From: Minisyncoccota bacterium
GTDB taxonomy: Bacteria; Patescibacteriota; Minisyncoccia; Phycocordibacterales; UBA2100
Assembly: GCA_043780835.1 (NCBI GenBank)
Contig: JAYWCB010000010.1
Location: 66,845-130,844, forward strand
DNA: 64,000 bases
Reading direction: 5' to 3'
Shown here: in pieces, positions 6,926-22,394 of the stretch
How the letters are laid out: each line of letters begins with the position of its first letter
Numbering within the stretch: position 1 is the first letter of the stretch
Notes under the pieces: generated by a model
What the model saw: the letters and a program-made list of their open reading frames with translations, nothing else
The model's database searches: none
Told to the model about the DNA's origin: nothing
Made by a program: the position numbers and the translations under genes

Positions 6926-7087
6926 GTCAAGCGCTCGAAATATTGCCGACGCAATATTCCTCCGCCTGACCACGCTCGCGCCGCTCCATCTGCTGATGGA
7001 GCCTCCGGCGCTCGCCTTCGAATCCCTCCCTCAATCTCGCAATGATGAATCAAAAAAACCCCTTACCGGAGTCTTTTCGAATCATTG

Positions 7088-7172
7088 CGGAGGGGGAGAG
7101 ATTCGAACTCTCGAGACCTTGCGGCCTGGCGCATTTCAAGTGCGCTGGAATCAACCACTATCCGACCCCTCC
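7088..7172 (-). tRNA. tRNA-Ser (anticodon UGA), class II with long variable arm
   Basis: Reverse complement GGAGGGGUCGGAUAGUGGUUGAUUCCAGCGCACUUGAAAUGCGCCAGGCCGCAAGGUCUCGAGAGUUCGAAUCUCUCCCCCUCCG. 7-bp acceptor, 3-bp D stem, anticodon loop CUUGAAA, T-loop UUCGAAU. Confidence 0.8.
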
Positions 7173-7173
7173 G

Positions 7174-7659
7174 TTACGTGACCACAGTACCATTAAGCCA
7201 ACTTTTTCCTAAATGATGCTCTTCGTAGTGACAATTCGGACATATGAGCTCCAGATTTTCAAGTTCATTGTTGTTTCGATTACGATCTCGATGATGTACG
7301 TGTAATATTTCAACCCTGCTGTACCTGCATCGTTCGCATTGTGTGCCACGCACTGCAATCAATCTTAACTTGACCGCTCTCTGATTTTTAACCTTATCTT
7401 TGGGACTTCCTATTTTATATTTGATGCCTGCACGATTTTTATTGGCGCATGCCCTACTACACGTCTTCTTATGTAAACTGGCTAATATAGGAGTCGCACA
7501 AATAATGCACGGATTTTCTTTTCTCGATGCGAGTCCGTAACAAGCTGAACTACAATACGCCATCCCCTTACTTCGAAGCAATTCAATCGGTCTTCGGTAT
7601 ACCGATTTGCCGCATATCCCACATTTCGAATTTGGATGTCTCATATGATACTCAGCCAT
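7174..7659 (-). CDS. HNH endonuclease (free-standing, zinc-finger rich)
   Basis: HVHHRDRNRNNNELENLELICPNCH HNH motif plus several CxxC pairs. AT-rich. Abuts the tRNA-Ser 5' end. Confidence 0.7.
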   Translation of the reverse strand: MAEYHMRHPNSKCGICGKSVYRRPIELLRSKGMAYCSSACYGLASRKENPCIICATPILASLHKKTCSRACANKNRAGIKYKIGSPKDKVKNQRAVKLRLIAVRGTQCERCRYSRVEILHVHHRDRNRNNNELENLELICPNCHYEEHHLGKSWLNGTVVT

Positions 7660-7734: not shown

Positions 7735-8205
7735 ATGCCCGATCATACGGTTGTCTTGCGATGGAATGCGTACGAACACGAACACGTTGAGCGCGGGTCG
7801 GAGTGGTTTTGGGCGCTCGGGATTGCTGCCGTCTGCGCCGCACTCACCGCAATTCTCTTGAGCGACATTATGTTTGCAATTCTTATTTTGGTCGCCGCAT
7901 TCACTATCGCGCTGCTTGCGCGCCACGCACCCGATGTTTCCACGTTTGAAATTTCCACAAAGGGCGTGCGCGTGGATCGTGTACTTCACCGCTACGACGA
8001 GATTATTTCGTTTTGGGTAGAAGACGAGCACGACGGGCATCCGCTCCTCTTAATCGATACGATTAAATTTATGTCACCGAATCTTATTATTCCCATCCAC
8101 GATATTGAACCGGGACTCGTGCGGGCATATATGCAGGAGCACACAACGGAAGTGCACATGAAAGAACCCTTCGCACACAAGGTGCTTGAATTCTTTGGTA
8201 TTTAA
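7735..8205 (+). CDS. Hypothetical membrane protein (2 TM)
   Basis: ORF with two hydrophobic helices; no recognizable family. Confidence 0.35.
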   Translation: MPDHTVVLRWNAYEHEHVERGSEWFWALGIAAVCAALTAILLSDIMFAILILVAAFTIALLARHAPDVSTFEISTKGVRVDRVLHRYDEIISFWVEDEHDGHPLLLIDTIKFMSPNLIIPIHDIEPGLVRAYMQEHTTEVHMKEPFAHKVLEFFGI

Positions 8206-9437
8206 CGGGTCGGATGCACGGTCGTGTTCATCTGAGAAACCGTGCCGGAAACGCTGGTACAGGTGAGCGCAATCTCGGTGTCTGTGGTGATTGCAGGAAT
8301 AGTGAGTGCTCCGCTTTGCGGCACGGGGTTTTCAAATCGGGCCGATAGTTCGGTATTGCCGGGAGAAGATAAGTCGCATTGATCCATGCCACGAGTCACC
8401 CACGCGAGGGACGCATTCATATTCACCGCTTGCGAGCTCAAGAGCATAAATGGTTTCATAACCGCAACCGAGCACGAAGCGCTTGCTGAACGTCGTCCGT
8501 CAGAACACGTGAGTGCATATTCCATAGTTCCATTCGGAAGGTTCTCCGCAATACGATCCTCGGTCGCCCCCCAAAGCAATCCACCGGTTGAGAATCCACC
8601 GCCCGCACTCGATACAGAATTCGTACATCCAAATGCAATCCCTACTTTCATTCCTGATTGTGCGATTTTCGGTTGACAGGAAATTTGTGCAACCGGACCG
8701 TTTTCGTTTCGTGATACGTGAACAGTATTGAGATCGCGGCCGATAGCGCGAATAGCATCTGCATCAAAATTGTTTTCTGCGGCGGCATTTGCCGTCTGAT
8801 CGATAATTAAAGCAACCGCTGCTCTGCCGCTCTCTGACAAATGATCGGCAAGCGCGATGTGTCCGCTGCTACCCGTCGCCTGGGCATCTGTCTCTCCCCT
8901 ATCGGTGAGCAATTGTGCCGCGATGATATTTGCCGCTTGCGCAGACTGCGACGCGTTTTGAATAGTGCTCTGGAGACACGATGCGCCGTTCGCAGGATCA
9001 CATGTGCCAATCACGAAACATGTTCCGGATTCCGTAATATACGAAGTTGGCGGACAGTATCGTACGGCACACTTACCCTCTATACCCCGCATGCACTCAG
9101 GCCGATCGCTATCGGGACCGGCAACCATTGCGGCACGATTGTGCGGGTCGGGAACAAAACATTTGAGTGCGTGAACTGAACCGGAGCCAGTACCCATATC
9201 CACCGTATACACTTGTCCGCTCGTGCACGTGTCGTTTGAATGCGTAAATGCTGACGCCGCTGACGCCGATTGCGCACCGGCGTTTTGCGATGCAATTTTG
9301 TATCCAGAAATGAAGAGCACAAAGATCGCTACAAAAACCAGCGCGGCGAGCACCGATGTACCGGACTGGGGCCTTCTCATGTATATATCATCGCGTCGAT
9401 GACGCCGCGGCGCAATGCACACACGGGGATACCTCAC
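8202..9437 (-). CDS. Secreted/anchored Cys-rich surface protein with C-terminal W-x-T-x-G-M-D-x-C Ig-like module
   Basis: N-terminal hydrophobic anchor, Cys-rich body, and C-terminal ASLAWVTRGMDQCDLSSPG...IALTCTSVSG module shared with three other proteins in the window. Confidence 0.5.
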   Translation of the reverse strand: MRYPRVCIAPRRHRRDDIYMRRPQSGTSVLAALVFVAIFVLFISGYKIASQNAGAQSASAASAFTHSNDTCTSGQVYTVDMGTGSGSVHALKCFVPDPHNRAAMVAGPDSDRPECMRGIEGKCAVRYCPPTSYITESGTCFVIGTCDPANGASCLQSTIQNASQSAQAANIIAAQLLTDRGETDAQATGSSGHIALADHLSESGRAAVALIIDQTANAAAENNFDADAIRAIGRDLNTVHVSRNENGPVAQISCQPKIAQSGMKVGIAFGCTNSVSSAGGGFSTGGLLWGATEDRIAENLPNGTMEYALTCSDGRRSASASCSVAVMKPFMLLSSQAVNMNASLAWVTRGMDQCDLSSPGNTELSARFENPVPQSGALTIPAITTDTEIALTCTSVSGTVSQMNTTVHPTR

Positions 9438-9494
9438 ACGTGAAAATCAGTACCGCTGGATTTCGTGTCGACTCTACGCTAGACTCCTCTCGAA

Positions 9495-9566
9495 GCTCCC
9501 GTCGTTCAACGGATAGGATTCATCCTTGCGGAGGATGTGATGTAGGTTCGATTCCTGCCGGGAGCA
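9495..9566 (+). tRNA. tRNA-Arg (anticodon GCG as read by eye)
   Basis: GCUCCCGUCGUUCAACGGAUAGGAUUCAUCCUUGCGGAGGAUGUGAUGUAGGUUCGAUUCCUGCCGGGAGCA. Perfect 7-bp acceptor stem, anticodon stem CAUCC/GGAUG, loop UUGCGGA, T-loop UUCGAUU. Confidence 0.6.
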
Positions 9567-9751
9567 CAATGCACAAAGGCCTGCGCAAGCAGGTCTTTGT
9601 GATTGATGCGACCGAGCATAGCGTCTGCGCGCTATGCGTGCAGGAATCGAACGCCGGAACGATGCGAGGTCAACAGACCGAGCAGTGAGGCGGTGCCCAG
9701 ACAAACTTTTGCGACGGCAAAAGTTTAGTCGAGGGAGATTCCGGCGTAGCC

Positions 9752-12700
9752 TTATTGCGCAAAATTAAAGCTTTGTGTAGACGGATTATCCAAAAATTTC
9801 GGCTCCGGCAAACTCGAGTCTTTGAATTCCCCGAGCGAAGCATTCGGCGGCGTGTAGAGGGACGCCATAATTTGATACGTACGCCCGGATATAAGATCCG
9901 ATCCGCACACCACGGATGACGACGAATTGCACGCATCGTCTGCATGCGGAATGTTCCAGGTAAACGTCCCGGCCTTGGCACGATGTCCCGAAATCAATGC
10001 AACGGTTCGTTTGTCGTCGACGCTATACAACCACAGCGCAACTGCCGAGACGTCGGGCGCACTCGGGAAATTCCAACGAATCGTCGCACTCGAGCCGAGC
10101 GCCACATTGGTGCGATTTTCTATTGAACTTGAAACAGTGCCGGGAGTCACCGCATCGACGGTGATCTTTTCTTGCCGAGTGGAGCCCGTAACGGTTTTGC
10201 AATTGAGGTAAAAATCCGTCTTTTGAGTGATGGCAGAACTCGTGGCGATGCCCGATGGCTTCTTGTTTGATGCGTTACGATCCGTGAAATCCGCCTGATC
10301 AGGACTTGAGATGACACACGAATCCATTCCCGTCGTAACCCATCCGATCAGAGTCGTGTCCCCTACGCGCGGTTTTTCGGGAATGGCGCGGAGCACAACG
10401 GAAATTTTGGCGATCTGCACGGTGCACTGCGCTGCCGCAGAAAGATTACCGTTTTCACACTTGAGCGCAAAGTTTGCAGCGTTTGCGTTTTCAGGCGGCG
10501 CGATGATCGTTGTCGTTGCCCCAGATGTGAATCCGCCTGTCACAAAGCCGTACCCCGTGCTTGAGGATGCATTTCCGCAGGTGTAAGAAATTATCGCCTG
10601 CGCGCCGCTTTCAACAACTCCAGGCTCACACGCAAGTTGGGCCGTTGGGGTGACGCTCGTGCTCACCACGCACTGCCACACAGGACAGACGGTGCCGCTG
10701 ACTAGCGTGCTCGTCATTTGTCGCCATGTGCCGTTGGTGCATGTGCTTGCATCGGGTTGTACGGAAAGCTGCGGGCACTGACCTGTCGTTCCCGTTCCGG
10801 AATTCGTGCACGGCTGTGGTGCTTGCGGCGCAATAGCGTACGACGTGACCCCGTAGAGCGCGCTTTGTTGCTGTTGATAATTATATTGCTGCAACTGGTA
10901 GTTGTACTGCTGCAGTTGTGAATTATATTGCTGTTGGTACTGAGAATATGCTTGTGAATCTGTTGGACATTTTTGTGCCGTTTGTGACGAGGCGCTACCG
11001 GACGAAGTTCCCCCACTCAAGCCTTTCATGAGTCCTCCCAAAAATGACGTGAGTCCGCTCAAGCCACTCCCTGAACCTCTGGAGCTTCCACCTCCACCGC
11101 CATTACCCCCGCCATTTGTGTTCGGTGCTTGATACCCCGGACAACCAGCTCTGGTAGCAGGACAATCTGAAGGATTTTCTTTTCTCGCTGGAGCATCTGC
11201 AGGCCGTTCGCGTGGTAATGGCGCAGCTTTCTCGCAGTATGCGGTTCCAGCTTCATACACACTGCATTTGTATCCTTTTTCTTCAAGTGCTTTTCGATCT
11301 TCGTCGGTTTTCGGTGACGCCGTGCACCGCGCGGGATCGGTAGTGCAATCAGGTTGATTCCGCAACGAGCTATCCTCGCTCTTATACATGTCGTCGTTCC
11401 CGCTATTATTTTTAACGGAGCCGCCGGTAGTTTTACCGGTTTCATCGACGCTCGCAGCTTTCGACAGATCTTTTCCCTCCGTCACCGGCTCAAGACCAGC
11501 CGCCCTAATCTGCTCATTAGTTGGCGGCTCGATACCCAACTTTTCTACAATCCAGTCCCCTCCAGCTTTAACCTTCGCATCAACCCAATTGTATGAATTT
11601 GCAAGGTTACTTTTTACGTTCTCCCATGAGTTCACTGGCTTATAGCCGGTGTCGGCTTCGCGCTGCTGATCGTACGGAACTTTATCGACCGGGAAATCTA
11701 CTTCGCCGGGACCTTGTGTACCTTTTCCAAAAGTACTTGTTTGAGTAAGCGCATTCGGATCGTTTGTCGGATTTTTAGGATCATCTCCCTTCGGCTCTTT
11801 TATCGTTCCGTTTAAATAATCGTTTGACGCGGCACCGGGGCTCATGGTTTTAATTTCTCCACCATTCAAAATAGCTCCCACATTCGACTTTGTATCGGTA
11901 GGATTGCCATGAAAGTTCATATCTGACTCCCCCTTGCCCATTCGCTCAAGCGCCTGCGATACCGTTTCGCCCTCTTTGAGATTCGCGATATTACCGGTGT
12001 TGTTATCAACAACTCGAGTTTCTCCGTTGAGAACCTCAACTTTTACTCCGTCTTTCAGCTCGTATGATTTGGCTCCGCTCTTCGCATCAGTCGTGCCGCC
12101 TGCTGGCGTTGTGCCATTCGTTGCCGACAGAATCGCATTCGGTTTCGTCGCGTTTGGCACTGGATTATCTCCTCCTCCACCCGGTGAGGGAAGCTGCGGC
12201 ATACTAGCAGACGTCGGTTGCGGAACGCCACCTGACTGAGGCGTTACCGACTGCCCTGCCCCGAATTGCTTCGGTGTCTCTGAACAATTACTTCCCGCCG
12301 TGGTGTTGTACGGATTTTTTATCGATGAGCAGACCGTGACTTTGCACTGGCCTTTCTGGACAGATTTATCCGGCTTCGTTTTACCGACCGTACTTTCGGT
12401 AGTAATGGTGACCGTGCCGCTTCTTCCCACACAATCATAGTCTTCCGTTTTCTGACTTGGTTGTTTTCCTGCTTTTACGATCGCACCAAAACACGCATCC
12501 ACGGTTCCGCTCTGCCCTTTATCAGTACTGGTGACTTCCGGACCTTCAGCTTTACCGAGCGCTGCCTGAATTGCTTTCGTGCAGTTTTCCGGTGCGGGAC
12601 TATCGTACTTAGTTGTACTTGGCGGCGCGTTATCGTCCGCGGTAATAGCAGCAGCCTGTGCCACCATCGCTCGCTGTTGAACAGACTCACCCGCGATTGA

Positions 12701-12862
12701 GTTCGTTTGATAAGAAGCATACGTACCACTCGTTGAGTTTTGTGGACCAACCAATTGGAACGATCCGGCCATCACGCCGGCAACAATGAGGAGCGAGAAT
12801 GCCATCAGTGGAGATACCCGCCGCTGGGCAGTCAGAAAATTCGCGATGTCCTCGCGGCGCAT
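9752..12862 (-). CDS. Giant (1036 aa) secreted low-complexity surface protein; Q/Y/N-rich and Gly-rich tracts, repeated Ig-like modules
   Basis: N-terminal TM/signal. Contains QYQQQYNSQLQQYNYQLQQYNYQQQQ and GGGNGGGGGSSRGSGSG tracts. Carries the shared module TTLIGWVTTGMDSCVISSPD...FYLNCKTVTG and a second W-N-x-P variant. Confidence 0.6.
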   Translation of the reverse strand: MRREDIANFLTAQRRVSPLMAFSLLIVAGVMAGSFQLVGPQNSTSGTYASYQTNSIAGESVQQRAMVAQAAAITADDNAPPSTTKYDSPAPENCTKAIQAALGKAEGPEVTSTDKGQSGTVDACFGAIVKAGKQPSQKTEDYDCVGRSGTVTITTESTVGKTKPDKSVQKGQCKVTVCSSIKNPYNTTAGSNCSETPKQFGAGQSVTPQSGGVPQPTSASMPQLPSPGGGGDNPVPNATKPNAILSATNGTTPAGGTTDAKSGAKSYELKDGVKVEVLNGETRVVDNNTGNIANLKEGETVSQALERMGKGESDMNFHGNPTDTKSNVGAILNGGEIKTMSPGAASNDYLNGTIKEPKGDDPKNPTNDPNALTQTSTFGKGTQGPGEVDFPVDKVPYDQQREADTGYKPVNSWENVKSNLANSYNWVDAKVKAGGDWIVEKLGIEPPTNEQIRAAGLEPVTEGKDLSKAASVDETGKTTGGSVKNNSGNDDMYKSEDSSLRNQPDCTTDPARCTASPKTDEDRKALEEKGYKCSVYEAGTAYCEKAAPLPRERPADAPARKENPSDCPATRAGCPGYQAPNTNGGGNGGGGGSSRGSGSGLSGLTSFLGGLMKGLSGGTSSGSASSQTAQKCPTDSQAYSQYQQQYNSQLQQYNYQLQQYNYQQQQSALYGVTSYAIAPQAPQPCTNSGTGTTGQCPQLSVQPDASTCTNGTWRQMTSTLVSGTVCPVWQCVVSTSVTPTAQLACEPGVVESGAQAIISYTCGNASSSTGYGFVTGGFTSGATTTIIAPPENANAANFALKCENGNLSAAAQCTVQIAKISVVLRAIPEKPRVGDTTLIGWVTTGMDSCVISSPDQADFTDRNASNKKPSGIATSSAITQKTDFYLNCKTVTGSTRQEKITVDAVTPGTVSSSIENRTNVALGSSATIRWNFPSAPDVSAVALWLYSVDDKRTVALISGHRAKAGTFTWNIPHADDACNSSSSVVCGSDLISGRTYQIMASLYTPPNASLGEFKDSSLPEPKFLDNPSTQSFNFAQ

Positions 12863-12917
12863 AACGCAATGATGCGCCCTGGAGGGCGCATCAACAATCT
12901 CTTATGCGTGGATAAGC

Positions 12918-13184
12918 CTACTTCAGGGCGACGCTTACCTGTTTTGCGAGACGCGATTTCATCCGCGACGCGGTGTTTTTCTTGATGGTGCCGTTCTTTG
13001 CAGCCTTATCGATTGCCTTGTACAAAGCCGGGAGGGACTTTTCGGCATCCTTGCCTTTCTTTGCAGAAACGAATTTAGTTACCGTTTTAACGGAATCTTT
13101 CATAGTCTTCTTGCGGCGCGCGTTAAACACGTAGCGTCGTTCGGAAACTCGTTCTGCCTTCTTTGCGGATGACGTATTTGCCAT
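12918..13184 (-). CDS. rpsT: 30S ribosomal protein S20
   Basis: MANTSSAKKAERVSERRYVFNARRKKTMKD...KAAKNGTIKKNTASRMKSRLAK. Start taken at the internal Met (the ORF track extends upstream). Confidence 0.75.
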   Translation of the reverse strand: MANTSSAKKAERVSERRYVFNARRKKTMKDSVKTVTKFVSAKKGKDAEKSLPALYKAIDKAAKNGTIKKNTASRMKSRLAKQVSVALK

Positions 13185-13414
13185 TCCCGCGATACTACGC
13201 AAAAAAGCGCTCAAATGCAAGCCCGGTAGGACAATTTGCCGTCGCTCAATGAGCGACACGGTTACATCATCACTGTATTCGAAATCTCACCGCGGTGAAC
13301 CGTTTGGGTAATCAGCTCTCGCGAGCATCATAACGACAAATTGTACTGACCGGGCAAGCGTACAGCCGAGGCTCACGGCTCGGCGAAGGCCAAAGCGCAC
13401 GCTATGATGGATAT

Positions 13415-13984
13415 ATGATCGGCTCCATTTCAGGCGAGGTAACGGTATTACGTGCGACGTTTGCAATCATCGCAGCCGGCGGCGTAGGATATAAAGTAGC
13501 AGCAACCCGCTCAACCCTCGCCACACTTACCATAGGAACCACAGCAACGCTCTGGACTCGTCTCATCGTGCGCGAAGACGTGCTTGATCTCTACGGATTT
13601 GAATCCGAAGAAGAGATGCGGTTTTTTGACATGCTGCTCTCGGTCTCGGGCATCGGCCCAAAGTCCGCACTCGCGGTCTTGGACATCGCATCCATCGAAA
13701 CACTCCGCAGTGCGATTTCGAGCGGCAACGCCGCGTATCTTACAAATGTGTCGGGCATCGGCAGAAAGACGGCAGAAAAAATAGTTATCGAATTGCGCGA
13801 TAAAGTGGGCAAATCGGCCGACGCAACAGACGCATCGCTTCGCGGCGACGAAGACGCACTCGAAGCGATGCGGGCACTTGGGTACTCACCGGCAGAAGCG
13901 CGCGACGCCTTACGCAAAGTGCCGACTTCGATTCAGAGCGGAACGGAGCGCTTGCGCGAAGCGCTCAAGATCATGGGTAAATAA
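13415..13984 (+). CDS. ruvA: Holliday junction branch migration protein RuvA
   Basis: MIGSISGEV... start and HhH motifs (LLSVSGIGPKSA, LTNVSGIGRKTAEKI). Confidence 0.9.
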   Translation: MIGSISGEVTVLRATFAIIAAGGVGYKVAATRSTLATLTIGTTATLWTRLIVREDVLDLYGFESEEEMRFFDMLLSVSGIGPKSALAVLDIASIETLRSAISSGNAAYLTNVSGIGRKTAEKIVIELRDKVGKSADATDASLRGDEDALEAMRALGYSPAEARDALRKVPTSIQSGTERLREALKIMGK

Positions 13985-13985
13985 T

Positions 13986-14816
13986 ATGACTTCAATCTAT
14001 TTATTTTTCAGTTTATTATGGACTGCCGTGTGGTGGTTTTTTTCCTGGTCGCACATTCCTTTGTATTCTGAATATTCCTTCTTCCCGCTCTGGCTTGGAT
14101 ACATAGCGGTTGTAAATGCACTATGTGAAGCGATCTACGGAGATTCTTTGTTTCGTCGAGCGGGGTGGCGGTTTCTGTGGCTCTTCGTTTTCTCGATACC
14201 GCTCTGGTGGGCTTTCGAATATATTAACTCCATAGTTCAAAACTGGCACTACGAGTATCGGCCAATTTCTGAATTACGATATTTTTTTCAATCGTCAATT
14301 GATTTCTCTACCGTTATCCCCGCCGTCCTCTCGGCCGCTTTTTTGTTCTACTTTTTTTTCAAAGACATGCGGTGGCGGTCAGACCAACGCACTCCATCAC
14401 CCGCGCTGCTTATTTTATCAATTGCGCTTGGCGCACTCTCGTTTGCCGTAATGCCTCTGTACCCCAACGAAGTTTTTCCACTCGTTTGGTTAGCTCCGCT
14501 CCTGATACTTGATCCGATCGCCTACGGGCTTGGCTTGCCATCAATATTTGGGTATATGACGAGCGGAGATTGGCGCGTACCTATCGCTACAGCGCTCGCA
14601 TCGCTCTGTACCGGTTTCTTCTGGGAGATGTGGAATTTCTGGTCGTACCCAAAATGGGTTTATACGATTCCCTATGTCGGTTTCTGGAAGATTTTTGAAA
14701 TGCCTATCCTGGGCTTTGGAGGCTACTTACCATTCGGACTCATAATTTTCGTGTACACCGTTCTGATCGCACGGATATTTTTTGCTCGACAGTGGCATGA
14801 TATTGGCTTCAATTAA
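13986..14816 (+). CDS. Polytopic membrane protein, unknown function (Trp/Phe-rich)
   Basis: ATG at 13986 immediately after the ruvA stop. About 8 hydrophobic segments. Confidence 0.4.
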   Translation: MTSIYLFFSLLWTAVWWFFSWSHIPLYSEYSFFPLWLGYIAVVNALCEAIYGDSLFRRAGWRFLWLFVFSIPLWWAFEYINSIVQNWHYEYRPISELRYFFQSSIDFSTVIPAVLSAAFLFYFFFKDMRWRSDQRTPSPALLILSIALGALSFAVMPLYPNEVFPLVWLAPLLILDPIAYGLGLPSIFGYMTSGDWRVPIATALASLCTGFFWEMWNFWSYPKWVYTIPYVGFWKIFEMPILGFGGYLPFGLIIFVYTVLIARIFFARQWHDIGFN

Positions 14817-16092
14817 AAGCATGGAAGCACTCAAAAAGATTCTTACGAGCTTAGGGCTGATGTCTGCGTACCACTTGGCACTCGCCTATTTCGGTGCATT
14901 TGTCTACGGATTTCCCTCTCAAAAAATGCTTGTGATCGGCGTGACCGGCACCAAGGGCAAATCAAGTACAACAGAAATGATCGCTGCAATTTTGGACGAA
15001 GCCGGGTATAAAACCGCGATGTTAAATTCTATTCGAATCAAGGTCGGCGAGGTGTCCGAAGCAAACACCATGCGCATGTCGATGCCGGGGCGAATGTATA
15101 TTCAGCGATTTCTTGCCCGCGCACTTTCCGCCGGCTGCAGCGCGGTGGTGCTTGAAATGACATCCGAAGGCGCTCGTCAGTATCGCCATCGCGGTATCGC
15201 GCTGAATGCGCTCGTGTTTACAAATCTCGCTCCCGAACACATTGAATCTCATGGTTCATACGAAGCATACGCCGACGCTAAGTTTTCGATCGGTCTCTCG
15301 CTCGCAAAATCCGCTAAACGCCCCCGCGTCATAATTGCAAATGCAGCCGATGCACAAGGCGTGCGCTATCTCACCCTTCCTGTGGAAATTGCTATCGGAT
15401 TTGCGCTCGATAATTTTGCGCCGTACGCATCAAATGACCGTGGCGGATATTTCACACTTGATCAGATCCGCATTGCCATGCAATTGCCTGGTGATTTTTC
15501 CTTGCAAAACGGACTCGCTGCCGCACTCGTCACCCGCACGTTCGGCGTTCCGCCTGCCACCATCGCGCTCGCGCTCGGTAAACTTTCCACCATCGCGGGG
15601 CGAGCTGAGCGTATCGAAGCGGGCCAGGACTACACCGTGATTGTGGATTATGCCCACACGCCGGACTCACTGGAAGCGCTCTACAGAGCATTCACCATCC
15701 CCTCGACGTCACTCGGGGTGAAGCGCAAATTGATCTGCGTGTTGGGCTCTACTGGCGGTGGTCGCGATACCTGGAAGCGCCCCGTCATGGGCGGTATCGC
15801 CGACACCTACTGCGATCACGTCATCCTCACCAATGAGGATCCGTACGACGAAAAACCAGAAGCGATTGTAACCGCGCTCGCACAGGACATGAAACGAAAA
15901 CCCGAGGTCATCATGGATAGACGCGCCGCAATTGCAAAAGCACTTTCACTCGCAAAAACCGGCGATGCAGTTTTAATCACCGGCAAAGGAACTGATCCGA
16001 ATATCGCCGGGCCGAACGGAACGTATCAACCATGGAGCGACGCCGTTGTTGCGCGCGAAGAAATCGTAAAACGCTCCTCATCGTCGGTATAA
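14782..16092 (+). CDS. Mur ligase family protein (MurE-like UDP-N-acetylmuramoyl-tripeptide synthetase)
   Basis: P-loop GVTGTKGKSSTTEMIAAIL, DYAHTPDSLEAL, and a C-terminal Mur ligase domain. Somewhat short for canonical MurE. Confidence 0.6.
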   Translation: MLDSGMILASIKSMEALKKILTSLGLMSAYHLALAYFGAFVYGFPSQKMLVIGVTGTKGKSSTTEMIAAILDEAGYKTAMLNSIRIKVGEVSEANTMRMSMPGRMYIQRFLARALSAGCSAVVLEMTSEGARQYRHRGIALNALVFTNLAPEHIESHGSYEAYADAKFSIGLSLAKSAKRPRVIIANAADAQGVRYLTLPVEIAIGFALDNFAPYASNDRGGYFTLDQIRIAMQLPGDFSLQNGLAAALVTRTFGVPPATIALALGKLSTIAGRAERIEAGQDYTVIVDYAHTPDSLEALYRAFTIPSTSLGVKRKLICVLGSTGGGRDTWKRPVMGGIADTYCDHVILTNEDPYDEKPEAIVTALAQDMKRKPEVIMDRRAAIAKALSLAKTGDAVLITGKGTDPNIAGPNGTYQPWSDAVVAREEIVKRSSSSV

Positions 16093-16099
16093 TGATTGC

Positions 16100-17065
16100 A
16101 TGGTACTCACCATATTGAAGTGGGTCGGTATTGCGATGGTGCTTTCGCTCATTGCGCTTTGGCTTTGGGAAGGCGGGTATTGGAAAATCGCAAAGTATGC
16201 CCAAATTATTCCGAACCCGCTGAATGCAACCTCAACTGATCCACTTTACCAATTGCCCGGACAACCGGATTTCTTCCAAGTGCCGGATACCACGTCCGGC
16301 TCGCAAGATATGGAATACGGATCATCCGACTATCAGAATCCCTCGGATGCGCTCACTGATCCTCGGCAATCTGACCCGCGCGCGCACGGTGAGCGATCTC
16401 CCTATGCAGATACGATTGATCTGCAAATCGGCGGAGCGCAAAATTCAAATCCCAACGATGAGTACGTCGTGATCCACATGTCCGACATCGCTCCGGTCGC
16501 GGTCGCGGTTTCGGGATGGACAATTCGCAGCGCGCTCTCGGGTGCGCGCGCTGTTGTACCGCTTGCTGCATCACCGTTTATGCAAGGAGTTGTGAATCGC
16601 GTGGACACCATCGTTCTTTCCGGCGGTGAGAGCGTCATATTGTCGAGCGGCACTTCACCGCTGGGAGTTTCCTTTCGCGAAACAACATGTACCGGTTATC
16701 TCGCACAAACACAGCGATTTTCACCCGCGCTTTCGAACGCATGTCCACGACCAACCGATCAAATGCCGCGCACGAGCGATATCGAGAGTCGCTTCGGAGC
16801 GTCATGCATTGATTTTGTAGAACGCCTCCCGCAGTGCAGTTATCCGACGATCATTCCAAACGATGTGACGCCCTCGTGCAGATCGTTTCTTGCAAACACA
16901 CTCACCTACAGCGGATGCATGCGCTCCTACGGCAGCGGACAAACAGAAAATTTAAATACGTGGCGCGTCTATGAATCATCAGCGAGTGAGCTGTGGAACA
17001 ATGAGCGCGACACGCTTATTTTGTACGATGCTGACGGTCGAGCGGTATCTACACTGAGCTACTGA
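16100..17065 (+). CDS. Secreted protein with lamin-tail-domain (LTD)-like segment
   Basis: N-terminal TM. NDEYVVIHMSDIAPVAVAVSGWTIRS resembles the LTD motif. Cys-rich C-terminus. Confidence 0.4.
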   Translation: MVLTILKWVGIAMVLSLIALWLWEGGYWKIAKYAQIIPNPLNATSTDPLYQLPGQPDFFQVPDTTSGSQDMEYGSSDYQNPSDALTDPRQSDPRAHGERSPYADTIDLQIGGAQNSNPNDEYVVIHMSDIAPVAVAVSGWTIRSALSGARAVVPLAASPFMQGVVNRVDTIVLSGGESVILSSGTSPLGVSFRETTCTGYLAQTQRFSPALSNACPRPTDQMPRTSDIESRFGASCIDFVERLPQCSYPTIIPNDVTPSCRSFLANTLTYSGCMRSYGSGQTENLNTWRVYESSASELWNNERDTLILYDADGRAVSTLSY

Positions 17066-17526
17066 ACCGCGGCAAACAAAATCACCCCCGCCGCAACAGA
17101 TACATTGAGCGATTCTTTTGATCCGAGCATCGGTATTTCGATGATGGTGTCGCACGCGTCGCAGAGTGATTTTGAAAGGCCGCGCACTTCATTCCCGAAC
17201 AGATACAGAGTTGCATCGGCTTCTTTAAATGAGCGGTACGGTAGGGCGCGCTCATCTTGTTCGACACCGACGATATGAACCCCTTCTTTTTTGAAGCGAC
17301 GAATTGTGGGAAGTGGTGTTTTTACATATGACCACGGGATCGTATGCTCGGCGCCAAGCGCTGTTTTTGCGATGTCTTTTTGTGGCCGGCCGAATCGATC
17401 CACCGGGAGGGGTGTATAGCCTGAAAGAATGATTTCGTGTACGCCGGCGCAATCGGCTGTGCGGAAAATGGACCCCACGTTATGAGCACTGCGGATATTA
17501 TGTAAAAGCACGGCGCGTTTTTGCAT
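17059..17526 (-). CDS. TrmH/SpoU-family RNA 2'-O-methyltransferase
   Basis: LHNIRSAHNVGSIFRTADCAGV...LFGNEVRGLS...IEIPMLGSKESLNVSVAAGVILF SpoU motifs. Start taken at MQKRAV. Confidence 0.7.
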   Translation of the reverse strand: MQKRAVLLHNIRSAHNVGSIFRTADCAGVHEIILSGYTPLPVDRFGRPQKDIAKTALGAEHTIPWSYVKTPLPTIRRFKKEGVHIVGVEQDERALPYRSFKEADATLYLFGNEVRGLSKSLCDACDTIIEIPMLGSKESLNVSVAAGVILFAAVQ

Positions 17527-17557
17527 AGGAAGACTGAGAGACTGTATACTACACGAC

Positions 17558-17902
17558 ATGCTTGCGCTGCTTCCCCAAGTCCTCTTTCTCGGTACGTTTG
17601 CCGCGTCCCTCATCCGTATCACCCTCGCGCTCATGTTTGCGTACTCCGCATGGGCCACTGTTTCGAAGCCGGATCTTGCAGTGCGCGGCTTCGCACTGCT
17701 AGAAATTGCGGTTGCAGCGGCACTCTTCGTGGGTGCGTGGACTCAAGCGGTCGCACTCGGTGCCGCGCTCATACTCGCGATTGAATGTGTGTTGCCGCAA
17801 TTCCGCACGTGGCCGCGCTCAACCGTCGCGCTCATGCTTGTAATGACACTCACACTTATTGTGACCGGGCCGGGCGCATTTGCGTTCGACTACCCGCTCT
17901 AA
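17558..17902 (+). CDS. Small membrane protein (DoxX-like, 3-4 TM)
   Basis: Entirely hydrophobic 114-aa ORF. Confidence 0.3.
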   Translation: MLALLPQVLFLGTFAASLIRITLALMFAYSAWATVSKPDLAVRGFALLEIAVAAALFVGAWTQAVALGAALILAIECVLPQFRTWPRSTVALMLVMTLTLIVTGPGAFAFDYPL

Positions 17903-17903
17903 T

Positions 17904-18272
17904 ATGGAGCCGCAGAAACCAATCGGAGGCGGATTGGCCGTTACACTGATTGCGTTTGCCGTTTTTATTGATGTGCTGCAGGCAATATTGACGTTTCTTT
18001 TGATCGGAATCGTTTTGAATCCTGCGATCGACATTCTCGCATCACTCGTGTTTTCGATGCTTCTTGCGTCGCACGGTGGCGGCTTGTTCAAGCGACGCGC
18101 CATTTCAATGATCTTTACCGCAATCGGAGAGTTTATTCCCGTCGTCAATGCGCTTCCTTTATGGACCGCGTTTGCGTTCTATACCGTTTTTATGGACCGC
18201 GCTCGCACTACAATAAAAAAACACTCATCGACTGAACAGATGCCTCGCGGCGGAGGCGGCTGGAGGTTGTAA
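17904..18272 (+). CDS. Small membrane protein, unknown
   Basis: Start MEPQKP; three hydrophobic helices. Confidence 0.3.
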   Translation: MEPQKPIGGGLAVTLIAFAVFIDVLQAILTFLLIGIVLNPAIDILASLVFSMLLASHGGGLFKRRAISMIFTAIGEFIPVVNALPLWTAFAFYTVFMDRARTTIKKHSSTEQMPRGGGGWRL

Positions 18273-18465
18273 TTTTTTGGTTACTATCCCGCGTGCTCGC
18301 GGGCCCCACGCAAAACCTTTCGAATCCTGACGTTCGCTTCGCGAACTCTGGTCACAGCATTATTGTGGTCAGGGATATTTTTCTCGTCGCCACTCGAAAA
18401 ATTCCACGACCCTGGCTCGCGGTCCCGCATGCTTGCGGGACATCGCTCCGCCTCGCACATGTAAA

Positions 18466-18495
18466 GAAAAACAGCACGCAGGTGCTGTTTTTTTA
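18466..18495. terminator. Bidirectional rho-independent terminator
   Basis: aaaaacagcacgcaggtgctgttttttt: GC stem flanked by an A-run and a T-run. Terminates the plus transcript and the minus-strand tRNA-Lys. Confidence 0.6.
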
Positions 18496-18500
18496 TCATG

Positions 18501-18573
18501 TGCGCCCACCAGGATTCGAACCTGGGACCGTCTCCTTAAAAGGGAGCTGCTCTACCAACTGAGCTATGAGCGC
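18501..18573 (-). tRNA. tRNA-Lys (anticodon UUU)
   Basis: Reverse complement GCGCUCAUAGCUCAGUUGGUAGAGCAGCUCCCUUUUAAGGAGACGGUCCCAGGUUCGAAUCCUGGUGGGCGCA. Canonical arms; anticodon loop CUUUUAA. Confidence 0.85.
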
Positions 18574-18636
18574 AAGTGTCGAAAATATAGCACCCCATTG
18601 CGGTGTGAGCGAGCGGAGGTGTGTTACTGTTTTTTT

Positions 18637-19107
18637 ATGGACCCCCTCATTATCTTCGGAGCGAAGTATCTCATCATCGTTTCCGCTGTTATCACACTCT
18701 GGATCATATCAATGCTCCCCTCGCGCGAGCGCGTGCGCTTCACCATACTGCTCATGATCTCGCTTCCGCTCGCGTACGTGCTCGCGAAAATCGCCGGGCA
18801 TTTCTACATCAATCCACGGCCGTTTGTTGTTGGACATTTCATACCGCTTGTACAACACGGAGCGGACAACGGATTTCCGTCTGATCACACCCTCCTTGCC
18901 GCTTCGCTTGCCGCAGCAGTTACCCTGATTCGACCCCGCGTCGGTATCGCACTGTGGATCATCGCTATTGTTGTCGGTATATGCCGAGTACTTGCCGGTG
19001 TTCACCATGGAATCGATATCATCGGCTCAATTGTGATTGCATCCCTTGCGGTATATGCGACACATCGTTTGCTCAGCTCGCGATTGCCGCGCTTCTTGCG
19101 CGACTAA
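18637..19107 (+). CDS. PAP2-family phosphatase (undecaprenyl-diphosphatase-like)
   Basis: Motifs FPSDHT and GVHHGIDI (PAP2 signature). Start MDPLIIF chosen because the track ORF start overlaps the tRNA. Confidence 0.65.
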   Translation: MDPLIIFGAKYLIIVSAVITLWIISMLPSRERVRFTILLMISLPLAYVLAKIAGHFYINPRPFVVGHFIPLVQHGADNGFPSDHTLLAASLAAAVTLIRPRVGIALWIIAIVVGICRVLAGVHHGIDIIGSIVIASLAVYATHRLLSSRLPRFLRD

Positions 19108-20840
19108 AGCGCCATTTGTACGGTTACGTTGTCAGTCAAATGCGCACCGTTTGGCGCAACGCACGAGATTGTAAACGTGGTCGACTGAGTGAGCGGCACC
19201 GTGGAAGCACCGCCCTTGAGAGAGGTGTGTGTAAAGCTGCCGTCCGGCGAGGTTTCGATGCAGTCTTTCACACCCTGTGTGTTCCAAAAAATTGAGGTGC
19301 GCGCTCCGAGTGGCACCGAAGGAGGCGAAGCCCATATATCAACCTTTGCCGTATTTTGAATCGTAGCCGGAGCGGATGTTGCCGTTACAGGCGGTTTTGT
19401 GCCGCCGATCGTTGTTTTTACCGTCGTTGGCCGAAATGTGGTGATCGTCGCAGTCGGCGCAATGGCGCTCGGTGGCTTTTGTCCGACAGTGTAACCGCGC
19501 AATGTGCACAAAGAATCAAAAAATGTGGATGGGATGATAAACGATAAGAAATTCTTTGACCATGGGCGGTTGATGCACATGCGAGCAATAGCCCCTTGTG
19601 ATTTACCTGTCGTGCTGTTCGTTCCATAAAAGCCGGCCACGCCTGAATTGCCGTCGCGAACACCCGCGATGATGGTCGTGCCGTTGGCAAGAATTTTTAC
19701 ATCGCCATATGCACCCGCGGGTACGTTTTTTTGAATAATACTCTGCACAATCGATTGCGGCGTGTTGAAATTGAGTGACGCGCCCGTCGAATTAGACCCA
19801 CCGGTCGAGGCGCTTCCGCCGCTCGTGTTAGACCCGCCAGTTCCGTTATTCGATACCGACCCATTGTCATTCAGATTCGTAAGCGGTGTATTAAAGCGTG
19901 AGCCACTGATATTTGTTGCGTTACCGTTTGTGAATATTGCGTCGTGTGTGTTGGTGGTTCCGCCGGTAGTATTTCCGGATGCACAATCAGGCGCATTGAG
20001 ACAATTACTATGCGTGAGCGGCGTGGGAGTGTCCGGCCGTGGCGTATCTGTTGCAGTCGCGGCTGTAACGTTTAAGTTCACACCGCCGCGCACTTCTGAA
20101 GTCTGTGCGTTTTTGATGCGAGCTGCATACAATCCGATGAGGGTATAGGTATGTGCCGTTGTTTCTGATGTACCGCTGCAGACCGTTGATGTGTGCGTGG
20201 GAAGCTGTTCGGTGTTTCCGTCTCCGTAGTCTATAAGCAAAAGCGATGTTGGGCATGCGGTCGTACCGTTGGTGAACGCAAACGTAACCTTGAGCGGTAC
20301 AGGACCCTCGGTCGGCGTGGCAACGAGGCCGCCGGTTGGATCTGTTGCACTCGTCACCGTGGTGTCGAGGTTTTTGTCATAGAAATAGCAGGTGGAATTA
20401 CTCTGTGAGAGCGCCTTATCACCGGTCGGCTGCATCGTGGTACAGCTGTTTGGATCGGTTGAACCGCTGCCGCTTCCACTACCGCCCCCTCCCCCACCTC
20501 CTTTCATTGCCTCCATGAGTTTACCGAGCAGTTCTCCAAGTTTTGAAAGACCCGCGTCCGGTCCCTTACCGTCACTTGTACCGGTTGCCTGACATTTCGG
20601 CGGAATGGTGCTTACGCATTTTCCATTCGTTGTGAATCCGCTTGTCATATCTTTGCAGGGTTTATTTATCGTCCCGCCTCCTGCCTTATCGCATTTTCCC
20701 GTCGGACCTTTTCCAAGAGGACATTGAGCAGTTCCGATACATTCCATATCTGCTGCCTCGCCTTCCGCCAAAGAAACGAACGGTGCCGCCAGAAGCAGCG
20801 TACAAAATATCAAGAGCACTACACGACTACGTGCCAACAT
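19104..20840 (-). CDS. Secreted Cys/Gly-rich surface protein, paralog A
   Basis: Signal peptide MLARSRVVLLIFCTLLLAAPFVSLAEG. Blocks GTSDGKGPDAGLSKLGELLGKLMEAMKGGGGGGGS, LNFNTPQSIVQSIIQKNVPAGAYGDVKIL and C-terminal DIWASPPSVPLGARTSIFWNTQGVKDCIETSPDGS...TISCV. Confidence 0.55.
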   Translation of the reverse strand: MLARSRVVLLIFCTLLLAAPFVSLAEGEAADMECIGTAQCPLGKGPTGKCDKAGGGTINKPCKDMTSGFTTNGKCVSTIPPKCQATGTSDGKGPDAGLSKLGELLGKLMEAMKGGGGGGGSGSGSGSTDPNSCTTMQPTGDKALSQSNSTCYFYDKNLDTTVTSATDPTGGLVATPTEGPVPLKVTFAFTNGTTACPTSLLLIDYGDGNTEQLPTHTSTVCSGTSETTAHTYTLIGLYAARIKNAQTSEVRGGVNLNVTAATATDTPRPDTPTPLTHSNCLNAPDCASGNTTGGTTNTHDAIFTNGNATNISGSRFNTPLTNLNDNGSVSNNGTGGSNTSGGSASTGGSNSTGASLNFNTPQSIVQSIIQKNVPAGAYGDVKILANGTTIIAGVRDGNSGVAGFYGTNSTTGKSQGAIARMCINRPWSKNFLSFIIPSTFFDSLCTLRGYTVGQKPPSAIAPTATITTFRPTTVKTTIGGTKPPVTATSAPATIQNTAKVDIWASPPSVPLGARTSIFWNTQGVKDCIETSPDGSFTHTSLKGGASTVPLTQSTTFTISCVAPNGAHLTDNVTVQMAL

Positions 20841-20894
20841 GCGATAAATCGTAACACACAGACGAGCACCTAAGGTGCTATGCGCATTCCGTGA

Positions 20895-22394
20895 CTACGG
20901 CGCCATGAGCACCGTCACGTGATTGTTCAAATGCACTCCGTTCGATGCAACACAGGAGATGGTATACGTGGTCGACTGCGTAAGTGGCACGGTCGAGGCG
21001 CCGCCTTTGAGCGATGCGTGTGTAAAACTGCCGTCCGCCGAAGTCTCGATACAATCTGTGACTCCTTGTGTGTTCCAAAAAATCGAAGTGCGCGCACCGA
21101 GCGGAACCGTAGGAGGCGAAGCCCAGATATCAACGACGGCAGTGGGAGCTGATGAAGTTGCCGCGACGGGCTTCTGGGTGGCGGTTCTCTGTATATTCAC
21201 GGTTTTTTGGTTTCCGGTTTTGTCGAATTGCGAAATGACTGCTGCATCGGGTTGAGTTTTTGCTGTGCCAATTACGTATCCCCGACCTGTGCAGAGCGAA
21301 TCAAAGAACGATGCCGGAATAATGTACGCAAGCACATTTGAAGCCCACGGACGGGTGCTGCACAAGCGCGTAACAGTGCCGAACCGCCCGCTCGCGTTGC
21401 GAGCGCTATTCGCTCCGTAGAATCCCGATACTCCTGCATTACCGTCTCGAGCGGCGACGATAATCGTCGTTCCATTGTCGAGGATTTTCACATCGCCATA
21501 CGGACCTGCCGGCACATTTTTCTGAATGATGCTTTGCACAATTGATTGTGGCGTATTGAAATTAAGCGCGGCGCCCACACCGTCGTTTGTACCACCGGTT
21601 GAGGCGCTGCTGCCCGTGGAATAGTTTCCCGCCGACCCGCCCGTCGAAACAGATCCGCTGTTATTCAAATTAGTGAGCGGCGTTGTAAACAACACTTTAC
21701 CGATGTTCGATAGTCCGTTGCCAGTAAACGCAGCGTTATGTATGCCGGCGAGGTCTGCGAGCGAATTTGTACCTCCTGTCGTTGCATGCGTTTCTACCGA
21801 CGGCGTGTCAGACGCGGTAAACGTTGCTGCGTTTACCCTCACATTTAAGCCACCTGATGATTGTTGAGACGCACTCCACGTATCAAATGCATTGAAAGAC
21901 GAGCCTGATGAACCTCCGTACGTACACGCACTGTTCGTCCCGGACGATGACGCGTCTACCGGTTGCATCGTCGTACAAATCTGACTGTTCAAACCGAATG
22001 ATGATGAGGCGTCCCCGCTTTCACCACCGCCACCTCCTCCGCCACCTCCCCCCTTCAAGGACTCCATGAGTTTGCCGAGAATTTCACCGAGCTTGGAGAG
22101 CCCTGCATCGGGCCCTTTACCGTCACTTGTGCCTTCGGCCTGACACTTGAATGTAGAGACGCATTTCCCAGACGTGGTAAATCCATTGGTCGAATCCGAG
22201 CACGGACACATGAACTTGTTCGGTGCGCCGACACATCCTTTTTTTGGAACAAATTTCGGTGAACATATACATGGATCCGGATCCGCAGGTACACACATGG
22301 CATCTGCCTCAGTACCCATTGCACGCGATATAAAAGGAGAAATCAAAAGGATGGCGCCGATGGCGAGCAACGCAACCCGGCCGCGTGTTTTCAT
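20895..22394 (-). CDS. Secreted Cys/Gly-rich surface protein, paralog B (tandem duplicate of A)
   Basis: Signal MKTRGRVALLAIGAILLISPFISRAMG. Same conserved blocks as paralog A and a nearly identical C-terminal 80 aa. Upstream leader catgcgataaatcgta is also duplicated. Confidence 0.55.
   Translation of the reverse strand: MKTRGRVALLAIGAILLISPFISRAMGTEADAMCVPADPDPCICSPKFVPKKGCVGAPNKFMCPCSDSTNGFTTSGKCVSTFKCQAEGTSDGKGPDAGLSKLGEILGKLMESLKGGGGGGGGGGESGDASSSFGLNSQICTTMQPVDASSSGTNSACTYGGSSGSSFNAFDTWSASQQSSGGLNVRVNAATFTASDTPSVETHATTGGTNSLADLAGIHNAAFTGNGLSNIGKVLFTTPLTNLNNSGSVSTGGSAGNYSTGSSASTGGTNDGVGAALNFNTPQSIVQSIIQKNVPAGPYGDVKILDNGTTIIVAARDGNAGVSGFYGANSARNASGRFGTVTRLCSTRPWASNVLAYIIPASFFDSLCTGRGYVIGTAKTQPDAAVISQFDKTGNQKTVNIQRTATQKPVAATSSAPTAVVDIWASPPTVPLGARTSIFWNTQGVTDCIETSADGSFTHASLKGGASTVPLTQSTTYTISCVASNGVHLNNHVTVLMAP

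Follow-up and report, generated by a model that had tools for sequence, protein, structure and literature searches.

In genomes of the candidate phyla radiation (CPR), PKD and other adhesion domains are found in surface proteins that are thought to mediate host attachment (PMC8080830), and a member of this group, Vampirococcus lugosii, carries giant membrane proteins in which PKD, fibronectin and DUF11 domains occur (PMC8080830). Here we analyse a 64-kb stretch of DNA from a Minisyncoccota bacterium (GCA_043780835.1, contig JAYWCB010000010.1), called the window and used for all positions quoted and read here as part of a Kaiserbacteria/Paceibacteria (CPR/Patescibacteria) genome, with a focus on four minus-strand open reading frames (ORFs) named P1, P2, P3 and P4. 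Their products resemble the V. lugosii proteins in belonging to a CPR host, in their predicted export, in the possession of immunoglobulin-like (Ig-like)/PKD modules and in a presumed role in attachment, but they are much smaller (392-1036 aa), rich in cysteine and members of syntenic core families, and they contain family-specific domains without known relatives. Considering the evidence as a whole, we find it probable that they represent three conserved families of exported, disulfide-rich multidomain proteins which share a divergent Ig/PKD-like module, with an old and lineage-specific duplication relating P3 to P4. The demonstrated part of this explanation comprises the homology of the module, its fold class, the breadth of the repeat family to which it belongs, the orthology and synteny of the genes and the history of the duplication. 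Literature searches returned no paper on any of the three families.

An initial annotation of the window had grouped the four ORFs as one family united by a module of about 60 aa. The ORFs are present on the minus strand as proposed, with a corrected start for P1: this ORF spans 8202-9437, but a start at M20 (9380) is most likely, given that the resulting protein is identical to the 392-aa database entry P0201 and that the orthologs concur. All four ORFs carry the module, W-x-T-x-G-x3-C ... [IL]-x-C, whose actual length is around 85 residues (about 83-90 aa). The assignment of one module to each protein holds for P3 and P4, where a single copy (module B) lies at the extreme C-terminus, but not for P1 and P2, in which two tandem modules are found, A (4 Cys) followed by B (2 Cys). 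Using BLASTP, P1 and P2 align over both modules with 36% identity (165 aa, E 9e-26), P2 and P3 over the module with E 5e-5, P1 and P3 with E 0.003, and P3 and P4 with 58% identity (E 6e-116) plus an N-terminal segment (E 9e-34). Profile-profile comparison with hhalign, for which separate alignments were made for each ortholog family, gave for the P3-type module B probabilities of 97.2% (E 3e-11) against its P2-type and 93.3% (E 2.7e-7) against its P1-type counterpart, while the P1- and P2-type modules B matched at 99.7% and the modules A of these two families at 99.9%. Modules A and B showed no significant match to each other by hhalign within these families.

Searching the six-frame translation of the window with a hidden Markov model (HMM) of the module returned matches in P1-P4 only, and the pattern W.T.G...C.{25,50}[IL].C picked out exactly the same four ORFs among 81,512 six-frame residues. 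By the profile-profile comparisons, the shared module claimed initially aligns above chance. These proteins are rich in Ser plus Thr (20-25%) and Gly (9-13%), a composition that might by itself produce an apparent similarity. That the module is such a low-complexity artefact can be practically discarded, since the W, the two Cys, and the G and P columns are invariant and in register, the profile-profile E-values reach 3e-11, the HMM finds no other ORF of the window and the AlphaFold model of the module is a confident one. Module B is better conserved than the remainder of the P3-type protein, and in this family it has highly conserved loops of its own (ETSPDGSF and GGASTVPLT).

To place the module more widely, a profile of module B (A2, 35 sequences) was compared by HMMER with 1.84 billion cluster representatives. 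It matched 8,376 of them at E<=1e-3, 2,588 at E<=1e-10 and 309 at E<=1e-30, the best matches being proteins of 400-5,000 aa with 5-42 matched stretches each; the best 150 proteins contain 1,263 copies, with a median of 8 per protein. The consensus of this repeat is PTVSLSASPTSVASGGSTTLSWSSTNATSCTASGGWSGSKATSGSETTGPLTATTTYTLTCTGSGGSASASVTVTV, and its profile matches module B of the P3-, P2- and P1-type families by hhalign at 99.4%, 98.5% and 95.7%, respectively. Module A of the P2-type family matches the same profile at 88.9%, for which reason module A is probably a more divergent relative of the repeat. Among the named carriers are Patescibacteria and a metagenome-assembled genome of the Pseudomonadota. 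The consensus and PF22352 (K319L-like PKD) can be aligned over their full length, at 24.8 bits where the threshold is 27, and one repeat protein, P0051, scores 109 bits on this model; the other repeat proteins scanned reached no Pfam or NCBIfam model for the repeat.

The AlphaFold2 model calculated from the module B alignment is all-beta, with six to seven strands, a pLDDT of 92.4 and a pTM of 0.80. Its structural neighbours are generic Ig-like folds, with Foldseek template-modelling (TM) scores of 0.6-0.68 to Ig and PKD domains; in the PDB they comprise SoxY/Z, the Ig domain of LILRB1 and the PKD domains of ColG/ColH and a surface-layer protein, and further neighbours are ICAMs, the PKD domains of an M14 peptidase and of AAVR, and bacterial adhesin repeats. 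Module B is on this basis predicted to be an Ig-like (E-set) beta-sandwich. Sequence searches of the PDB with the proteins and the profiles returned no relatives. Compared with PKD-like Ig domains, in particular PF22352, and with the two-Cys tandem repeat ('...LSWSSTNATSCTASGGWSG...TTYTLTCTG...') known from giant bacterial and CPR surface proteins, it has the same length (~80-90 aa) and Ig-like sandwich, the same W followed by a C 8 residues on, and a second C in a [YF]-x-[LI]-x-C strand, but it occurs here as a single copy at or near the C-terminus of short proteins, whereas the repeat forms long tandem arrays. From the classical PKD domain it differs in having no WxFGDG/HxY motif.

Since the profile finds thousands of proteins with tandem copies of the same repeat, the module is not a new domain; by these comparisons it is a divergent member, here in single copy, of a two-cysteine Ig/PKD-like tandem repeat that is very widespread. 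The proposal of a novel anchoring or recognition domain therefore falls: largely as its own refuting case foresaw, the module belongs to a widespread and very common type, and the proteins are new members of the broad class of Ig-domain surface proteins. What emerges instead is a gap in annotation, mainly in CPR and other metagenomic proteins, for a repeat present in thousands of sequences that the Pfam and NCBIfam models tested do not catch at threshold.

In P1, P3 and P4, and in every one of their orthologs, no more than 0-3 residues separate the end of module B from the stop codon, and this position, together with its conservation above the rest of the protein, could be taken to indicate a C-terminal sorting or anchoring signal read by a lineage-specific export or attachment machinery, in the manner of the C-terminal domain (CTD) of type IX secretion, likewise an Ig-like unit of ~80 aa at the extreme C-terminus. 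The likeness is one of resemblance only, and we consider this explanation unlikely. In P2-type proteins module B is internal and followed by a Kre9-like domain of ~130 aa, and elsewhere giant proteins contain tandem arrays of 5-42 copies of the same repeat, as befits a spacer or binding unit. No type IX secretion system is seen in the lineage, as far as the window and the related loci show, and no dedicated machinery gene adjoins the loci. The LP.[TSA]G motif is absent from all four proteins, so there is no C-terminal LPXTG sorting sequence, and P1, P3 and P4 end with the Ig module; attachment by sortase was rejected on these grounds.

Rather than one paralogous family, the four genes make up, by their orthology, three families (P1-, P2- and P3-type), each occupying a fixed syntenic position in related genomes. 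The P1-type has ~24 orthologs of ~390 aa, the P2-type includes genes of 838 aa (L004) and 1026 aa (L007), and P3/P4 have about 40 homologs. In a survey restricted to one genome per species, P3-type genes were found in 48 species-level genomes, mostly named Candidatus Kaiserbacteria or Paceibacteria. Gene order was compared with that of GCA_040959275.1, a groundwater scaffold from ENA and a 298-kb contig (loci L002, L004, L006, L007), across which two blocks recur in agreement with the window: T2SSE-TsaE-PolA-HolA-like-P3-type-PAP2 or BacA-tRNA-Lys, and SpoU-LTD-like-Mur ligase-RuvA-S20-P2-type-tRNA-Arg-P1-type-156-aa membrane protein-tRNA-Ser.

This gene order bears directly on the tRNA genes, to which the initial annotation had given weight by stating that both loci abut them. 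The tRNA-Arg gene does lie between P1 and P2, but a PAP2 phosphatase gene separates tRNA-Lys from P3. Three tRNA genes within a 16-kb region, combined with a tandem duplication, might suggest a horizontally acquired island carrying a variable accessory cluster of adhesins. The same tRNAs and gene order are found in distant relatives, the GC content (0.51-0.53) and skew are flat over the region with no island signal, and the ORF list of the window shows no integrase or repeat boundaries, so that an island is very improbable and largely refuted. Because of this shared order and flat composition, the flanking tRNAs are best read as part of a conserved core synteny and not as integration sites.

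Small differences are seen around tRNA-Arg(GCG), which adjoins the P2-type gene throughout (L004 16474-16546, L006 2979-3051, L007 7630-7702). It stands before the gene in L004 and between the P2- and P1-type genes in L007 (same strand) and in L006 and the window (opposite strand), and L004 has a P2-type gene with no adjoining P1-type gene. This varying place and orientation points to local rearrangement.

The diverging tandem pair recognised initially is borne out. In the close relatives examined one P3-type gene follows holA, and two do so in the window; in a neighbour-joining tree P3 and P4 are sisters within a clade of single-copy orthologs, with P4 on the longer branch. The duplication thus seems specific to the lineage of this genome. 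It is also old, because synonymous sites are scrambled: the codons differ at 178 of the 288 identical residues (62%), and no exact DNA match exceeds 17 nt. The blocks GTSDGKGPDAGLSKLGE.LGKLME and LNFNTPQSIVQSIIQKNVPAG and the last 80 aa, noted early as shared, are real in the alignments, while the signal regions described as near-identical have about 47% identity. Blocks with 85-90% amino acid identity show just 74-79% DNA identity, and such conservation argues for purifying selection and not gene conversion; recent paralogs homogenised by conversion were considered as a candidate and rejected, there being no identical DNA tract beyond 17 nt.

The centres of P3 and P4 differ as claimed, but much of the difference is a PKD-like domain of ~95 aa present in P3 and absent from P4, and not divergence as such. 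P3 retains the MLAR... N-terminus and the PKD insert of the single-copy ortholog, and the closest single-copy relatives carry the insert too; P4 is on this basis the derived copy, which has lost the insert and evolved faster. Tandem P3-type pairs occur in five other genomes (L017, L022, L024, L026 and L034; six with that of the window), where, in the same quick tree, a single duplication seems common to L022 and L024 and the remaining pairs appear independent.

A duplicated upstream leader had also been reported, and it holds: the 16-nt sequence CATGCGATAAATCGTA occurs exactly twice in the window (20838 and 22392), against 0.08 expected. The 13-nt leader TACGATTTATCGC, immediately ahead of the ATG, shows 100% identity between P3, P4 and the single-copy ortholog in another species (GCA_040959275.1; L002 9988-10000), and contains a small inverted repeat, CGAT-TT-ATCG. 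This exact conservation implies some function, and the leader could serve as a regulatory site or help to initiate translation. A scan for promoters and terminators was uninformative, its counts being no higher than those expected from shuffles. Upstream of the leader, the P4-P3 spacer contains a degenerate copy of the holA 3' end (41 nt), with a similarity score reached by 11 of 2000 shuffles. Given that the ~40 nt before the P3 leader still resemble the holA tail, the duplicated unit began inside holA and consisted of the last ~40 nt of this gene, the 13-nt leader and the P3-type gene. The locus offers a clean example in which an old tandem duplication was followed by the loss of a domain, while a small non-coding leader stayed exactly conserved.

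Outside the modules each family has domains of its own. Pfam and NCBIfam scans of P1-P4 gave nothing usable, a weak CopK match in P2 being far under the cutoff and disregarded. The P3-type family is defined by a strongly conserved central domain of ~100 aa, described as a family-specific alpha/beta domain, with invariant G, G-D, T, GF-G, C, R-P-W, FFD-LC and G positions. A 28-residue match of this domain to angiotensin-converting enzyme (P3 aa 424-451, ~19488-19571; E 0.003, 20.7 bits) was judged a spurious, chance similarity on account of its shortness and the lack of fold support. Strong purifying selection acts on both the central domain and module B, and the linkers are variable. The P3 insert displays a PKD-type motif (PLKVTF, DYGDG, HTYTLIGLYAARI); the Pfam PKD/PKD_4 models (PF00801/PF18911) weakly match 4 of 20 P3-type homologs (E ~8e-4) and do not match P3 itself. 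At the C-terminus of P2, a region aligns with the Kre9/KNH-like Ig domain (PF10342) at or near the gathering score, in a bacterial context and in a C-terminal position. The match is borderline for P2 (22.9 bits against a cutoff of 24.6), reaches 24.7 bits in the L007 ortholog and 21.2-21.5 in two other P2-type orthologs, and is absent from the L004 ortholog. This domain is not part of the module common to the four proteins. Aside from modules A and B, no relationship could be detected between the N-terminal parts of P1 and of P2, and a homology of their Cys regions suggested by eye was rejected at an hhalign probability of 2%.

P2, P3 and P4 also contain a strongly amphipathic helix flanked by poly-Gly, which is kept throughout both the P2- and the P3-type family; in the latter it follows the motif TSDGKG-x-D-x-GL-x-KLGE-x-LGKLME and is succeeded by poly-Gly. 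Its hydrophobic moment is 0.39-0.47 across the three proteins, a range reached by at most ~1% of shuffles, and for P2 (0.39) by 0 of 2000. The P2- and P3-type helices align by hhalign with E 0.0025 and a probability of 12%, so that their similarity is weak and homology no more than suggestive.

The designation as secreted Cys-rich proteins agrees with the composition and layout of all four, which look exported from their N-terminal signals or anchors, cysteine content and Ig-like modules. In P1, a hydrophobic N-terminus (aa 1-27, an anchor or signal) is followed by an 8-Cys and a helical region and then by modules A and B, the latter at the extreme C-terminus. P2 begins with a transmembrane anchor and Cys-containing regions, this part being long and variable in the family, continues with poly-Gly and the amphipathic LGGLMKGL helix, a Q-rich stretch and a Cys cluster, and ends with module A, module B and the Kre9/KNH-like domain. 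P3 presents a signal peptide, a Cys-rich N domain (8 Cys in the P3-type), the amphipathic helix with poly-Gly and the PKD-like insert, an optional element of the family, followed by an S/T/G/N linker, the central domain, a T-rich linker and module B. By inspection, all four N-termini are basic and hydrophobic; P3 and P4 have classical signal peptides ending in SLA and SRA, P1 and P2 a longer hydrophobic helix, and the alignment shows the signal peptide to be kept across the P3-type family. Cysteine makes up 2.5-3.6% of P1-P4, against a median of 0.5% in the 44 other ORFs of the window (5-7-fold enrichment), and the number of cysteines after the signal is even in all four (14, 26, 16 and 14 for P1 to P4), as expected for disulfide-bonded extracytoplasmic proteins. 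A type IV pilin or pseudopilin nature was rejected on inspection: P1 shows SG|TSVLA without E5, and P3 and P4 have signal peptidase I-type (SPI-type) signals.

The public version of P3, P0001 (514 aa), begins at M65 and thereby loses the signal peptide and four conserved cysteines. It is probably a start-codon misannotation, since the conserved leader and the alignment of homologs support the ATG at 20840 and a protein of 578 aa.

From these features we infer export, disulfide bonding, a surface location and an adhesive or envelope function. Sec would carry the four proteins out of the cytoplasm, where P1 and P2 would remain tethered through the N-terminal helix, and P3 and P4, once their signal peptide is cleaved, would be released or held non-covalently. 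Disulfides would stabilise the domains outside the cell, and the Ig-like modules could act as rigid, protease-resistant spacer or binding units, displaying the family-specific domains so that these can adhere to a host cell, a partner cell or an envelope component. The three families would accordingly be reasonable candidates for the surface biology and host contact of an uncultured lineage, and they add to the Kaiserbacteria three syntenic core families of Cys-rich exported proteins, one with a conserved domain that has no detectable relatives.

Several points weigh against this picture. Signal-peptide cleavage and disulfides were judged by eye and by counts, and the neighbour-joining tree, calculated on the central domain together with module B, is a quick distance tree with no support values. 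No Pfam or NCBIfam model, PF22352 included, is reached directly by P1-P4 or by any of the 35 sequences of module B, so the link to PKD is transitive. Every homolog of the three families is annotated as 'hypothetical', and the central domain of the P3-type has no fold neighbour in a structure search. Finally, the genes keep a strict single-copy core synteny beside housekeeping and envelope genes, and this suits a basic role in the envelope no less well than host adhesion.

The last point has a counterpart in the explanation that these are core envelope proteins and not adhesins, structural or assembly parts of the Kaiserbacteria envelope (scaffolds of a surface layer or associated with the wall, for instance) with module B docking to a conserved envelope component, which we regard as possible but the less favoured option. 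The P3-type genes are single-copy and syntenic over the 48 species-level genomes, their neighbours include PAP2/BacA undecaprenyl-phosphate phosphatases, a Mur ligase and an LTD-like membrane protein, and module B and the central domain are very strongly conserved in the P3-type family. Yet the neighbours mix in unrelated housekeeping genes (polA, holA, ruvA, rpsT) of streamlined genomes, where adjacency says little about an envelope role, recurrent tandem duplications and hypervariable linkers are more usual in interaction proteins than in envelope parts, and the Pfam/NCBIfam scans of P1-P4 detected no wall-binding or surface-layer domain. The initial view of a rapidly evolving adhesin family remains plausible as regards the tandem duplications recurring in six genomes and the variable linkers, but not as regards the central domain and module B, which are under purifying selection and behave as parts of core genes.

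Going further than exported proteins of an Ig-domain class, the three families might together form a Kaiserbacteria-specific surface apparatus, in which the alpha/beta domain of the P3-type (invariant G-D, GF-G, C-x2-RPW, FFD-LC) would be a 'head' on PKD-like modules and the amphipathic helix found in two families (GL.KLGE.LGKLME / LGGLMKGL) would be membrane-active on the host cell. We give this proposal little credence at present; if true, an uncultured symbiont lineage would possess a host-interaction system of a new kind, and not just a collection of generic adhesins. The coordinates of all these features are given in Table 1.

Table 1. Positions of the four genes, their domains and the associated non-coding features in the window.
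Feature	Position	Strand	Details
tRNA-Ser	7087-7172		
P1	8202..9380	-	392 aa, P1-type; ORF list, database protein P0201, ~24 orthologs of ~390 aa
P1 module B	8205..8453	-	WVTRGMDQC...LTC, 2 Cys
P1 module A	8454..8702	-	4 Cys, ~83 aa, probably Ig-like
tRNA-Arg(GCG)	9495..9567	+	between P1 and P2
P2	9752..12862	-	1036 aa, P2-type
P2 Kre9/KNH-like Ig domain	9755..10102	-	C-terminal, about 115-130 aa, PF10342
P2 module B	10145..10405	-	WVTTGMDSC...LNC
P2 module A	10406..10654	-	from BLASTP, HMM and hhalign
P2 glycine-flanked amphipathic helix	11003..11125	-	GLSGLTSFLGGLMKGL
tRNA-Lys(TTT)	18500..18573	-	separated from P3 by the PAP2 gene
P3	19104..20840	-	578 aa, P3-type
P3 module B	19107..19355	-	WNTQGVKDC...ISC
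P3 central conserved domain	19473..19781	-	LNFNTPQSIVQSIIQKN..GD..GFYG..C..RPW..FFDSLC..RGY; family-defining
P3 PKD-like insert	20067..20348	-	aa 165-258, ~95 aa; PLKVTF...DYGDG...HTYTLIGLYAARI; absent from P4
P3 amphipathic helix with poly-Gly	20478-20585	-	GLSKLGELLGKLMEAMK-GGGGGG
13-nt leader before P3	20841-20853	-	TACGATTTATCGC; within the P4-P3 spacer 20841..20894
P4	20895..22394	-	499 aa, tandem duplicate of P3
P4 module B	20898..21146	-	WNTQGVTDC...ISC
P4 central conserved domain	21258..21572	-	
P4 amphipathic helix with poly-Gly	22017-22136	-	GLSKLGELLGKLMEAMK-GGGGGG
13-nt leader before P4	22395..22407	-	TACGATTTATCGC; follows the stop codon of the holA-like gene and precedes the P4 ATG

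Three further ORFs of the window have related features. Between the two loci, 16100-17065 (plus strand) encodes a 321-aa protein with an N-terminal transmembrane helix and several Cys, whose orthologs show a weak match to LTD (PF00932); it would be another exported protein with an Ig-like fold in this conserved neighbourhood. A 420-aa ORF at 61070-62332 (minus strand) has an N-terminal hydrophobic helix and 4.3% Cys and is probably exported, and it has no match to the module HMM. Adjoining tRNA-Ser, a 161-aa ORF (7174-7659, minus strand) with 7.5% Cys and a CPNCH...H motif is zinc-finger/HNH-like in appearance.

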